DNA from: Promethearchaeota archaeon
GTDB taxonomy: Archaea > Asgardarchaeota > Lokiarchaeia > Sigyniarchaeales > SOKP01
Direction: 5' to 3'
Assembly: GCA_030599585.1 (NCBI GenBank)
Contig: JAUVNS010000002.1
Coordinates: forward strand, 288,001-352,000
Length of the DNA: 64,000 nucleotides
Shown here one piece after another: positions 20,838-25,510 of the stretch (its first letter is position 1; each line of letters begins with the position of its first letter). The position numbers and the translations under genes are program-made. The notes under the pieces were generated by a model that had not been told where the DNA came from, did no database searches, and saw only the letters and a program-made list of their open reading frames with translations.

Positions 20838-22145
20838 TTACAACTTGATAGAAAAAGGAAAATCCTTTATTTCTTCTATTTTATTCTGGTCTGGATCCAT
20901 AAATTTAATTAAAATTCTAATTACATAATCTCCCGCTTCAAGGGGTTTAAGGTTAATCTCCCATTTTATATCTTCGTTAGATTTAAGGGAGTAAATCTGC
21001 TTATTCGTGGTTCCCCTCATAACTTTTAATTGTTCCGGAAATTCAACATCCAACTTCAAATCTAAAGCTTCTCCTTCGCTCTGGTTTTCAATAGTAAACT
21101 CGAGTGGAAATGTTTTTTCGAGGAGAGGAGGTCTTAAATTTCTTATTGATGCTGTTAATGTAGCAGGAGGAGAAATTAAGTTAGGTATTAATGATTGAGT
21201 TTCATATAGAAAAATCAAATCGTTATTTAACTCACAGGTGAGTACCATAGGACCAATACTTGACTTGTCGACTTGAAAATGAGGTTTAATTTTGAATTGT
21301 AAATGAGTTTCTTTACCTATATCTAATGGTAACGGAACGCTTGGTTTATTGTGTGTTGCTAAATTATCAGACAAATTTATTAAAAATTTTGTGATGTTAA
21401 ACTGGTTCAATTCAAACTTATAGAAAGGGTTGTTTATGATTTCCACTAGAGGTTTCGTATCAAGTTTTAAATCTAAATTAAGAATTTCATTTGTGGTATA
21501 AATGTCTTTGTCTAATTTAAATGAGGTCGTAATGCTAAGCTTGATATGTGTTATAATTAATACCAATTTTAAGAGTTTTAATTCTGCTTCTCTAAATTTG
21601 TAATTTCCAACTTTATCTTTGATTTTTTTTACATATTTAGATTCATTTTTTCTCAAAGCTAGAGTAATTTCTGAAACAAGCTTAATCAGTTGATGCTCCT
21701 TAAAAAATTCTTTATCAACCTTCTTGCTAGTTTTCTTTAAAAACTCCAATCCTTCGTTTGGAGTTCCTTTAACATAGGAACACATGTAAGAAAGCACGGA
21801 GAATAGAACATAATTCGAGTTTCTATCCCCTTCACTCTTGAGTTTAGGAATGAGATTTAATGCTTCCTTATAAACGGGGTTTGCATCTCTAAAGTTATTT
21901 GCCCATAAACAAGCTTCTCCAGATTGTCTCAATAATTCTACACTGGTGTCAAAGCGTCCGATTTCAGTAAAAATTTTAGCACTGTTCATGAAACATACTT
22001 TTGCTTTTTCGTATTCATTCAAATTAAGCAATAACTTCCCAGCGGAATGGTAACTTTTACCTGCTTTTTTAAATTGTTTCGCTCTATATAGTTGCTCAGC
22101 TTTTAGTATCAGTTTTTCAACAGCTAATCTTTGGTCTTTTCCCAT
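20838..22145 (-). CDS. TPR/SNAP-like helical repeats plus C-terminal Ig-like beta-sandwich domains
   Basis: N-terminal Ala-patterned helical repeats (KKAGKSYHSAGK, EKAKVCFMNSAK). C-terminal FTIENQS...LKPLEAGDY Ig-like strands. Confidence 0.6.
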   Translation of the reverse strand: MGKDQRLAVEKLILKAEQLYRAKQFKKAGKSYHSAGKLLLNLNEYEKAKVCFMNSAKIFTEIGRFDTSVELLRQSGEACLWANNFRDANPVYKEALNLIPKLKSEGDRNSNYVLFSVLSYMCSYVKGTPNEGLEFLKKTSKKVDKEFFKEHQLIKLVSEITLALRKNESKYVKKIKDKVGNYKFREAELKLLKLVLIITHIKLSITTSFKLDKDIYTTNEILNLDLKLDTKPLVEIINNPFYKFELNQFNITKFLINLSDNLATHNKPSVPLPLDIGKETHLQFKIKPHFQVDKSSIGPMVLTCELNNDLIFLYETQSLIPNLISPPATLTASIRNLRPPLLEKTFPLEFTIENQSEGEALDLKLDVEFPEQLKVMRGTTNKQIYSLKSNEDIKWEINLKPLEAGDYVIRILIKFMDPDQNKIEEIKDFPFSIKL

Positions 22146-22352
22146 TTAAAATCACTATTGTTATAAATTAAACGTGAAATTAATAATTGAGGGATTGTTT
22201 TGACTTATTGGCATCTAAAACCAATAATTCTTCACAAGAGTGTGTTAAATACTAGAACAAGAAATCTTAATATTATATATTTACAAAAATATGAAAAAGA
22301 AGTTTAATTGAGTTAAACTTCAAAAAATTAAAAAATAGGGGGTAAAACTTTT

Positions 22353-22429
22353 ATTACCGAAACCATGACAATATGGTTCGTCTTCTTGCGACTAATATTT
22401 TCTCGCAAGATTCATCCTTTCGGTTTAAT
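22353..22429 (-). promoter_or_regulatory. SECIS element (eukaryote-type) in the 3' UTR of hdrA-mvhD
   Basis: Minus strand reads ACCGAAA-gg-AUGAA-UCUUGCGA-GAAAAUAUUAG-UCGCAAGA-AGAC-...-UUUCGGU. This gives helix I, an AUGA/GA core, a perfect 8-bp helix II and an apical A-run, starting a few nt after the mvhD stop. Confidence 0.85.
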
Positions 22430-22430
22430 G

Positions 22431-22898
22431 TTATTTCTTTTTTTCTTCAGAATCTTTTTTCTCAGCTTCTTTGATCAGTGATGCTTTAATGGGGTTAGTT
22501 CCTAGATTCTCTATTATTTCAGTTACTCGGATAACTTCTTCTTGAAATTTTTGACCTTCAGCTGCACTACAGCTAAACATTTGGATTCTCTCGGGTGCTA
22601 CTCCTGCTGTTTTTAAAATTTCCTTTGTGTATTCTACATTCTTCGCCGCTACTAAATTCCCAGTTTCGTAATCACATTCTCCTTTATATCATCCAGCAAC
22701 TATTACGCCATCTGCTCCCTTTCCAATAGCTCTCATCATTAAACTAGGTGTAACTCTCCCCGTGCAATTTATCCTTATTGGTCTAATTGTTGCGGGATAT
22801 TGAGCTCGAATCGTACCGGCCATGTCTCCAGCGCCATAACCTCATTTCCAACACATAAAGGCTAAAATTTTTACTTGGTCTTTTACATTCGCTGTCAT
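22431..22898 (-). CDS. mvhD: Hydrogenase iron-sulfur subunit MvhD/VhuD, selenoprotein with 2 Sec (155 aa); absent from the ORF track
   Basis: Hand translation: MTANVKDQVKILAFMCWK-U-GYGAGDMAGTIRAQYPATIRPIRINCTGRV...GADGVIVAG-U-YKGECDYETGN...ERIQMFSCSAAEGQKF. TGA at 22842-22844 and 22689-22691. GAGGTG SD 6 nt before the ATG. Confidence 0.93.
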
Positions 22899-22911
22899 AT
22901 TTTACACCTCT

Positions 22912-24888
22912 CTATATATTTTCCAATATAGCATCAATTTGTTTTTCGTATTGGGGTTCACGATAGTATCTTAAAGTTATTGCTTCTGAGGGACAATTAG
23001 CTAAACAAGCGCCACATCCTCTACATAGAATTTCATCAACTTCAGCACCATCAGGTTCTACTTTAATAGCGTCGTAAGGGCAGTTAAGTTGACATAATCC
23101 ACATTTCGCACACTTTTCATTATCAACAGTTGCACGGATTAAGAGAATTCGGTATTTATCCTTCATCATTAACCGTGCTAAAGAAGAAGCAGCTGCTCTT
23201 CCTGACGCTATTGAGTCCGAAATCGCTTTAGGCCCTTGAGACACCCCAGCTAGCACAATTCCTGGAATTTTCGTATCGATAGGGTTTAATCTCGAATGAA
23301 ATTCCTTGAAAAAACCATCATGACTTTTTTCAAGTTTTAAGATGCTTGCGATTTTTTCGATTCCTTTAGCTGGCACCATGGCACTAGATAAAACAACTAA
23401 ATCGTACTCAAATTCTTTTAATTTAGTAGTTCCAACCGTGTTTTGTAACGCAACCTTAAGATTGTGTGTTTCGGGATCTTCTTGAAGTCGGGAAACATTT
23501 GTTCTAATGTATTTTATTCCCTCTTTTCGAGACGCTGTGAAGTATTCCTCGTAATCTTTCCCCGCTGCTCTTATATCCATGTAGGCTACAGTGACATCTA
23601 TATGGGGAGAGTGTTGCTTAATGAGTTTTGTATTCTTAACAGAAATCATACAACACACACCTGCACTGCAGTACGTCTTCCGAGTTAAATCTCTTGAACC
23701 AACGCATTGAATGAACAAGACACTTTTCGGTTCTTTTCCATCAGAGGGACGCTTTAAATGTCCAATCGTAGGCCCGTTAGGTGCTAATATCCGTTCAAGT
23801 TTTAATTGAGTGATTACATTAGGATAGACATTGTATCCTAAATAACCCGTTTCAGGTTCGTATTCGTCCCATCCCGTTGCTACGACTATCGACCCAACCT
23901 TAACTTCCAGAAGTTCGTCTTCTTGATCGAAATCAATTGCATCCACTTCACACGCTTTTATACACAAACCACACTTAATACATTGCGTCATATCGATTTG
24001 TGCCAACATTGGAACTGCCTGTGCGAATGAGGCATAAATTGCTCTCCGGGGATCCAAACCTTCGTTAAATTCGTTATATCCGTAAGCAGGACAGACCTCC
24101 CAACAAGCACCACAACCGTTACATTCGTTATTTACGTATCTTGCTCTTTTCCGGATCTTAACCTCAAAATTACCTACAAATCCAGTTACTTCTTCTACTT
24201 CACTGTATGTATGTAAGTTTAATCCCGGAGTTCTAGCTGTTTGAAGCATTACTGGCCCGAGAATTCAGATACTACAATCGTCCGTAGGGAAAGTTCGGTC
24301 AAGCATTGCCATTTTACCGCCAATCGTTGGTTTCTTTTCAACTAAGTGCACTTCAAATCCTTCTTCAGCTAAATCGATTCCTGCTGATAATCCAGCGACC
24401 CCACCACCAATAATAAGAGCCTTTTTTGTAATATCCACTTCTTTAATTAAGATTTTTTCTAAAGTGGAAGCTCGAGCAACTCCAGCGCGAATAGCGTCTT
24501 CAGCAGTACTCTTTGCCCCCGGTCTATCGTTTCTATGAACAAAACTTGAGTGTTCTCGAATATTAACGAATTCTAAGTAAGATGGATCCAAATTCATATC
24601 TTCCAACACGCTTTTAAAAACGGGCTCGTGAGTTTTTGGTGTACACGCTGCCATAAGTAATCGATTAGCATTAAATTCAATCATCTTTTCCTTAATGAAC
24701 TCAGCACCGGACTGTGTTCATAGCGATATATAATCTACTGCTTCGACGACATTCGGTAAAGCTTTCGAATATTCTGCTAACGCTTTTGTATCGATTATTT
24801 CAGCGATATTAAGACCTCATCGGCAGATAGTAATTAAGATTCTGACTTCATCATTTTCAGTCATTACTTTGTCTTTAGTTTCTACCAT
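22912..24888 (-). CDS. hdrA: Heterodisulfide reductase subunit A, selenoprotein with 3 Sec (658 aa)
   Basis: One frame from ATG 24888: ITICR-U-GLNIA (TGA 24817-24819), YISL-U-TQSG (24718-24720), FPTDDCSI-U-ILGP (24265-24267). Joins ORFs 24265-24684 and 22912-24249. IIGGGVAG FAD motif, QCVGSRD, ferredoxin motifs. Confidence 0.93.
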
Positions 24889-25096
24889 TGCATAATTCTC
24901 CTTGTGTTATTTTGTTAGTTCCTCCAATAATTTTACGCTAATTATTATACATGAAATATTTTATTCTAATTTAAAATAACGATTAAAAAAATTAACTTTA
25001 AATCAGTATTCTTTTATATATCTTTTATTATTGATGGAATTAAAAATATTCGATTAAATCAAATTTAAATAGATTTTCCACGGTTATTACTTTAAG

Positions 25097-25510
25097 ATGC
25101 TATTTACTTTTTTACAGATGGGAACTCCTTCAATAGATGAACTACTCCCATTTATCATTATGGGCGCGTTCGCTGCAGGAGATATATTGTTATTAAAGTT
25201 AGCATTAGTGGTAACTAAAGCCCAGAAAAGAACACGGATGAAATGGGTTGCGGGAAGTTTTGCTATTCAATTTGGAATAATTTTTATTATTAGTTCTCCC
25301 TTGTTTTTGCAAGCTTTTATGGGTTCATTTAAAGGAGAACTTGATGTAATAATTCCTATCGTTATCCTTTCATTATTTATAGATCTCAACGTGATAAACG
25401 TCTTACATCAAGTAGGTCTAAAGCGTTCATTTGGCATTCTTTTGATTACTTTCGTTCCTATAATTATCGTAATGATTATATTAGGAAACACATTTGCACG
25501 AATGCCATAG
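25097..25510 (+). CDS. Small membrane protein (about 4 TM helices)
   Basis: Hydrophobic ORF of 137 aa. Confidence 0.7.
   Translation: MLFTFLQMGTPSIDELLPFIIMGAFAAGDILLLKLALVVTKAQKRTRMKWVAGSFAIQFGIIFIISSPLFLQAFMGSFKGELDVIIPIVILSLFIDLNVINVLHQVGLKRSFGILLITFVPIIIVMIILGNTFARMP

Follow-up and report, generated by a model that had tools for sequence, protein, structure and literature searches.

Gene pairs that encode the selenoproteins HdrA and VhuD are known from Lokiarchaeota, and the pair considered here, hdrA-vhuD (vhuD is also called mvhD), lies on the minus strand of 64,000 nucleotides of Promethearchaeota archaeon DNA (GenBank assembly GCA_030599585.1, contig JAUVNS010000002.1, positions 288,001 to 352,000). 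We call this whole stretch the window and count positions from its first letter. The pair carries five in-frame UGA codons, and behind vhuD lies one selenocysteine insertion sequence (SECIS) of the type named lokiSECIS. Mariotti et al. (2016; PMC4989117) described multi-selenocysteine HdrA proteins with five possible selenocysteine (Sec) positions on conserved Cys residues. In their loci vhuD is always downstream of hdrA, with a very short spacer or an overlap, and a single lokiSECIS is found behind vhuD and none elsewhere, from which a polycistronic mRNA was inferred. One lokiSECIS is shared by up to six UGA codons over about 2 kb. The stop codon of hdrA is never UGA, and it was argued that a UGA there would be recoded. 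The lokiSECIS itself has AUGA and GA (or AA) flanking a stem of nine positions, and an 11-nt loop whose first five bases are A-rich and whose last base is G, usually preceded by A. Huang, Xiao and Zhang (2024; PMC11227280) reported that hdrA and frhD (= vhuD/mvhD) of Asgard archaea are always same-strand neighbours sharing one eSECIS-like structure.

The shared-SECIS arrangement has thus been published in 2016 and again in 2024, and the present locus is a correct rediscovery, one more clean example of it. It resembles the Lokiarchaeota loci (PMC4989117) in gene order, short spacer, multi-Sec HdrA, two-Sec VhuD and single lokiSECIS; nothing essential differs, the present copy having three plus two UGAs. 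The original prediction for this DNA, made from the sequence of the window, had cited the 2016 paper only for its eukaryote-like SECIS; the same paper already states that the SECIS is shared, infers a polycistronic mRNA and describes the extra Sec positions of HdrA.

Three further comparisons place the locus. The type I eSECIS-like structure of Asgard hdrA-frhD (PMC11227280) has the same AUGA_GA core and A-rich loop, but it is modelled with a simple lower stem and an internal loop, whereas here the 3' side of that internal loop is a hairpin. HdrA and VhuD of Methanococcus maripaludis (PDB 9sfi; PMC13518236) are orthologous and agree with the present proteins in the canonical Sec position of HdrA and in both Sec positions of VhuD; the methanogen HdrA, however, has one Sec and a SECIS of the euryarchaeal GAA_A kind, and the present HdrA has three Sec codons and no GAA_A element. 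Finally, the likeness to eukaryotic SECIS elements and to SELENOP extends to a position in the 3' untranslated region, an AUGA/GA kink-turn core, unpaired A residues in the apical loop and the use of one element for several distant UGAs. In contrast to the eukaryotic family RF00031, helix II is shorter here, Rfam gives no match at E<=10, and the mRNA is predicted to be polycistronic. SELENOP itself carries two SECIS elements (PMC4989117).

The gene pair and its UGA codons

Both genes were modelled with TGA read as U and with the aid of Pfam and alignment to PDB entries; the spacer was read from the sequence. The features are as follows.

22912-24888, minus strand: hdrA, 658 codons with three in-frame UGA; stop TAG at 22912-22914
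22899-22911, minus strand: hdrA-vhuD spacer, 13 nt, with Shine-Dalgarno sequence GAGGUG at 22905-22910
22431-22898, minus strand: vhuD/mvhD, 155 codons with two in-frame UGA; stop TAA at 22431-22433
24817-24819, minus strand: UGA, HdrA codon 24 (CRUG), aligned to Cys13 of 9sfi_A
24718-24720, minus strand: UGA, HdrA codon 57 (SLUT), aligned to Cys46 of 9sfi_A
24265-24267, minus strand: UGA, HdrA codon 208 (DDCSIU), the canonical Sec position, aligned to X (Sec197) of 9sfi_A
22842-22844, minus strand: UGA, VhuD codon 19 (CWKUG), aligned to X in 9sfi_K
22689-22691, minus strand: UGA, VhuD codon 70 (AGUYKGEC), aligned to X in 9sfi_K

With the UGAs read through, HdrA matches the PDB HdrA chains 9sfi_A and 5odc_A over its full length with E values near 1e-195 (4.6e-195 for 9sfi_A, residues 16-656) and has the Pfam FAD/NAD and 4Fe-4S (ferredoxin) domains. 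VhuD/MvhD contains the FlpD domain (PF02662, 1.7e-42) and matches the VhuD chain 9sfi_K at 1e-36. The codon positions given by the original prediction (24, 57 and 208 in HdrA, 19 and 70 in MvhD), the TAG and TAA stops and the 13-nt gap were all borne out. It had also foreseen that gene callers would fragment or miss both genes: translation table 11 splits hdrA into pieces of 139 and 445 amino acids and vhuD into pieces of 44 and 49, and the public gene calls for the same contig store the 139- and 445-residue HdrA fragments as separate proteins. Related public protein entries carry the labels of Promethearchaeota or Candidatus Lokiarchaeota metagenome-assembled genomes.

Do the UGA codons stand where selenocysteine would be expected? 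By alignment, each of the five coincides with a Cys, as had been proposed, or with a Sec of the solved Methanococcus enzyme. In the Cys-only paralogues of the same genome (contigs C13, C18 and C52), Cys occupies every one of the five columns, and four further hdrA loci of this genome have U there. We compared 12 full-length hdrA orthologues from sister genomes, 77-97% identical. U24 and U208 are retained in every one of them; at codon 57 the window and its three closest orthologues have U and eight others have Cys, all within the same genus, a pattern suggesting that Sec and Cys were exchanged recently at this one site. The vhuD orthologues always have both U residues. Every Sec pair of this genome and every orthologue ends hdrA with TAA or TAG, and the frames of the orthologues are otherwise open.

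Two other loci among the genomes compared deserve mention. In a paralogous pair (L081, G011:C5:960-3700), a single lokiSECIS accompanies five UGAs in hdrA (codons 16, 49, 74, 199 and 300) and two in vhuD. This total of seven Sec codons exceeds by one the highest number given by Mariotti et al. (2016). Codon 152 of its vhuD is another in-frame UGA and probably serves as the stop. In a sister genome, the pair at G017:C17:399200-402400 (L082) was first taken for an hdrA with one UGA and no SECIS. That assignment was rejected: the gene is all-Cys, overlaps vhuD and has the UGA as its real stop, and no SECIS is present. This pair makes a useful negative control for the rule that the hdrA of a Sec pair never ends in UGA.

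The SECIS element behind vhuD

The element begins close behind vhuD, the first base of its helix I lying 7 nt past the TAA.

22356-22424, minus strand: whole SECIS fold, a three-way junction, with helix I formed by 22420-22424 and 22356-22360; fold z-score -3.6
22381-22415, minus strand: lokiSECIS core, with AUGA at 22412-22415, GA at 22381-22382 and loop GAAAAUAUUAG at 22392-22402
22403-22411 with 22383-22391, minus strand: helix II and the A.A, eight Watson-Crick pairs plus the A.A giving nine positions per strand
22361-22378, minus strand: third arm, a side hairpin that follows the GA and precedes the 3' strand of helix I
22322-22335, minus strand: two U6 tracts 3' of the SECIS, likely an archaeal transcription terminator of the bicistron (read from the sequence)

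In every point of sequence and geometry the element agrees with the lokiSECIS of Mariotti et al. (2016): the AUGA/GA, the nine-position stem, the 11-nt loop with its A-rich start (A at four of the first five positions) and its final AG, and the placement. The five UGAs lie 276, 429, 1,852, 2,305 and 2,404 nt upstream of its AUGA. The element is kept in 13 orthologues with a mean column identity of 81%, and compensatory double changes among them affect four of the eight helix II pairs. An Rfam scan of positions 21500-25500 at E<=10 returned no SECIS family, RF00031 included, and gave only snoRNA and small-RNA matches at chance level; the failure of RF00031 agrees with the statement of Mariotti et al. 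that the standard SECIS tools fail on these elements.

The main texts of Mariotti et al. (2016; PMC4989117) and Huang et al. (2024; PMC11227280) do not mention a side hairpin or lower three-way junction. Equivalent side hairpins of different sequence are present in nearly all the lokiSECIS elements sampled from this genome and its sister genomes, and their stems covary from element to element: ACCC/GGGU, CCUU/AAGG, AACCAU/AUGGUU, AUGG/CCAU. Because MAFFT misaligned two of 11 paralogous elements when flanks were included, the junction was scored across paralogues with a custom parser and compared with shuffled flanks. The parser was positive in 74% of cases as against 29% of shuffles, the test being a permissive one. 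In this genome (G000), the elements concerned, besides that of the window, lie at C20:52503, C20:389154, C21:176757, C24:250883, C26:252454, C26:75979, C34:226786, C40:117301 and C50:64939; others are at loci L039-L067.

A proposed single SECIS for two cistrons

We propose that the single lokiSECIS behind vhuD serves all five Sec UGAs of the hdrA-vhuD bicistron, which would be decoded by the pathway of archaea and eukaryotes, and we put the probability of this reading at roughly 0.85. The gene structures, the Cys/Sec correspondence, the uniqueness and conservation of the SECIS and the presence of the decoding machinery are established here. A 13-nt gap leaves no room for a promoter or a terminator between the genes, and one bicistronic mRNA is the most likely picture. 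On such an mRNA, hdrA and vhuD would form a two-gene transcription unit whose sole Sec-insertion signal would be the lokiSECIS: the kink-turn core AUGA...GA, the 8-bp helix with its A.A, and the 11-nt A-rich loop, set in a three-way junction. The SECIS would recruit EFSec and Sec-tRNA-Sec to UGAs 276-2,404 nt upstream, including the three of hdrA, the first cistron, and tRNA-Sec, PSTK, SepSecS, SelD and EFSec would together decode the five codons as selenocysteine. VhuD would be initiated from its own Shine-Dalgarno sequence, GAGGUG, which stands six bases 5' of the vhuD AUG inside the spacer. Across all orthologous hdrA-vhuD loci the spacer measures 4-15 nt. Transcription probably ends at the U-tracts just 3' of the SECIS; a similar U-tract motif follows the SECIS in several orthologous loci. 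The genes on either side (a TPR protein, an M24 peptidase, orotidine monophosphate decarboxylase and the TATA-binding protein) are unrelated to the pair, which therefore appears to be a stand-alone unit.

Is the element behind vhuD truly the only one? We built a lokiSECIS covariance model from 11 elements found by a pattern scan of the whole genome, and the model found one element beyond its seeds. Run over the 64-kb window with filters off, it gave one match above 15 bits, the SECIS behind vhuD, at 52.4 bits, a score that is partly circular because this element is in the seed; the next best match scored 14.7, and there was no match in or upstream of hdrA. The scores of the orthologues are free of that circularity: in 13 orthologous loci and the paralogous L081, none of them in the seed, the model gave a single match of 39-52 bits per locus, always behind vhuD; the runner-up scored 15. 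On the mRNA strand of the operon, the euryarchaeal GAA_A pattern (GAA/A bulge, G/C-rich upper stem, lower stem) had zero matches. A scan of synonymous sites over the 12 orthologues in 20-codon windows showed no marked trough in hdrA or vhuD, the minimum being 0.69-0.78 against means of 1.08-1.12. The original prediction had found a single SECIS-like hairpin, following mvhD, and neither the covariance model nor Rfam, the GAA_A pattern or the synonymous-site scan added another in or upstream of hdrA.

The occurrence of the element across the genome follows the same lines. Each of the five Sec-containing hdrA loci has a lokiSECIS at the 3' end of its unit, four behind vhuD and one, on C20, behind a lone hdrA, where a standard lokiSECIS stands 105 nt past the gene's own stop. 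The pairs with Cys only (C13, C18, C52 and C9 in this genome, and one pair in a sister genome) have no lokiSECIS. A Sec-containing hdrA followed by a Cys-only vhuD and a SECIS was not seen among the matches listed.

The alternative that survives best is that hdrA has a Sec signal of its own, of an undescribed type, within the coding sequence of hdrA or vhuD, and that the SECIS behind vhuD serves vhuD only. Searches by model and by pattern detect known shapes only, the hdrA of euryarchaea carries its own SECIS, and no experimental precedent exists for a SECIS that acts past a stop codon and over 2.4 kb. Yet no 20-codon window shows the loss of synonymous variation that a strongly conserved signal would leave; the lone Sec-hdrA on C20 indicates that the HdrA family uses the same type of element; and Mariotti et al. 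(PMC4989117), who ran RNAz over the coding regions, found nothing else. We judge a separate hdrA signal to be improbable.

Several points nevertheless weigh against the proposal that one lokiSECIS serves both genes, beyond the partial circularity of the score in the window. A signal of an undescribed kind in the coding region could escape the model searches, and the synonymous-site scan senses only a strongly conserved one. For Asgard loci, the present one included, the literature surveyed offers no evidence from transcripts, ribosome profiling, 75Se or mass spectrometry. In the sole reported test, a lokiarchaeal SECIS failed in M. maripaludis (PMC11881835), so that function is predicted only. 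No SECIS-binding protein, that is, no SBP2 homologue, is known in Asgard archaea (PMC4989117, PMC11881835). Co-transcription, Sec insertion and action across the cistron boundary are accordingly what we infer from comparison: the machinery, the Cys/Sec columns and the single element per locus support the earlier suggestion that one SECIS recodes across the boundary between the cistrons. That the U6 tracts terminate the bicistron is likewise likely from their position.

Small open reading frames (ORFs) with an in-frame UGA lie just upstream of other lokiSECIS matches in this genome, at C21:176540-176743, C34:226586-226780, C26:252292-252414 and C26:110503-110552. They include a 67-residue membrane-like protein with SAUGS and a 64-residue protein with GGGUPSTC, and the twelfth match of the covariance model likewise has an upstream gene. 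These ORFs are possibly small selenoproteins that have yet to be listed.

The Sec-decoding machinery

The components that the original prediction had proposed to look for are present in the genome. SepSecS (C28:17149-18306) is matched at 1e-112 and PSTK, as PSTK/KTI12, at 4.3e-35; two SelD genes lie above the cut-off, each with one UGA. EFSec, on the minus strand of C28 at about 11.5-13.0 kb, has the Pfam aSelB_III domain, and its best PDB match is the archaeal SelB 4ac9 (2.6e-86). The tRNA-Sec gene was the elusive one. A whole-genome search with Rfam RF01852 missed it, returning only a tRNA-Leu at 30 bits, and neither ARAGORN, with and without introns, nor a strict cloverleaf regular expression gave a credible tRNA-Sec. 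BLAST with the tRNA-Sec of a sister genome located it between EFSec and SepSecS, at G000:C28:16776-16925 (L002:1128-1277). The gene has an encoded CCA and two introns, one of 28 nt at the canonical 37/38 position (C28:16817-16844) and one of 30 nt in the T-loop (C28:16879-16908), and it is because of these two introns that the annotation tools missed it. Once spliced, it is called tRNA-SeC(UCA) by ARAGORN and is identical to the sister gene at 81 of 89 positions, with compensatory changes in the acceptor stem. An intron in the T-arm of Loki tRNA-Sec has already been published, and in the literature surveyed it is the only one reported for that gene.

With the pathway complete, it is hard to argue that the UGAs are decoded as something other than Sec, through a genome-wide reassignment or through near-cognate read-through giving Cys or Trp. 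Translation alone cannot tell Sec from another residue, and to that extent such decoding is conceivable. UGA, however, terminates 11.5% of the long ORFs in the genome and is thus normally a stop codon there, and it also ends the all-Cys hdrA of the sister genome; the in-frame UGAs occur only on Cys/Sec columns, and their presence tracks that of the SECIS. We regard decoding as another residue as very improbable. The idea that the genes are decaying pseudogenes, or the UGAs assembly errors, for which one could cite the fragments that gene callers return, is already effectively refuted by the recurrence of the UGA codons in 12 independent genomes at 77-97% identity, by the similar pattern at the four other Sec-containing hdrA loci, and by the interchange of Sec and Cys in frames that are otherwise intact.

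The reach of the genus-trained model can also be stated. At E<=0.001 it gave no match in 12 genomes from other genera of the same order (G019-G030), which nonetheless have tRNA-Sec and UGA-containing hdrA and vhuD; their SECIS elements must therefore differ enough to escape it.

Selenocysteines and the N-terminal cluster of HdrA

What might the extra Sec residues of HdrA do? The N-terminal domain has only four Cys/Sec residues, 22, 24, 57 and 82. Mariotti et al. (2016; PMC4989117), writing before an HdrA structure was available, called these HdrA Cys residues non-ligands of the cluster. According to later work, the N-terminal [4Fe-4S] cluster receives a ligand from the partner HdrA, namely Cys197 (equivalent to U208), besides 'a combination' of Cys residues of the N-terminal domain, and a 2026 cryo-EM study shows Sec197 in a selenosulfide with a Cys. 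In the HdrA literature we found a ligand statement for Cys197 only; the N-terminal Cys residues that ligate are not named.

If the N-terminal domain gives the other three ligands, at least one of U24 and U57 should ligate the cluster. Since in the methanogen enzyme the N-terminal domain and residue 197 supply the ligands, at least two of the cluster ligands would be selenolates in the present HdrA. The remark in the original prediction that the N-terminal Sec residues probably ligate Fe-S clusters goes slightly beyond the 2016 paper, as a reasonable inference. One may picture five Cys/Sec residues grouped at the N-terminal [4Fe-4S] cluster (22, 24, 57 and 82, with 208 contributed by the partner subunit), with at least two selenolate ligands, possibly acting as a relay, and with redox tuning through codon 57; taken as a whole, this picture is tentative and we hold it to be rather doubtful. 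Were it true, in those paralogues that have U at all but one of these five positions the site may work as a selenosulfide/diselenide relay linking FAD to the cluster, and not as a ligand set alone, and the exchange of Sec and Cys at codon 57 in a single genus would be a natural redox-tuning series.

Implications

The locus has some practical uses. It helps to correct the fragmented annotation by which public calls divide one hdrA between two proteins, and the genome that carries it shows that a tRNA-Sec can escape detection when it carries two introns. For the biology of these archaea, the use of a single SECIS for many UGAs that lie in two cistrons and spread over more than 2 kb would be unusual, and it bears on the origin of the eukaryotic Sec system. 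For a first experimental test of the mechanism, the locus offers a set of orthologues that differ by Sec or Cys at one site, together with a three-armed SECIS that is conserved.

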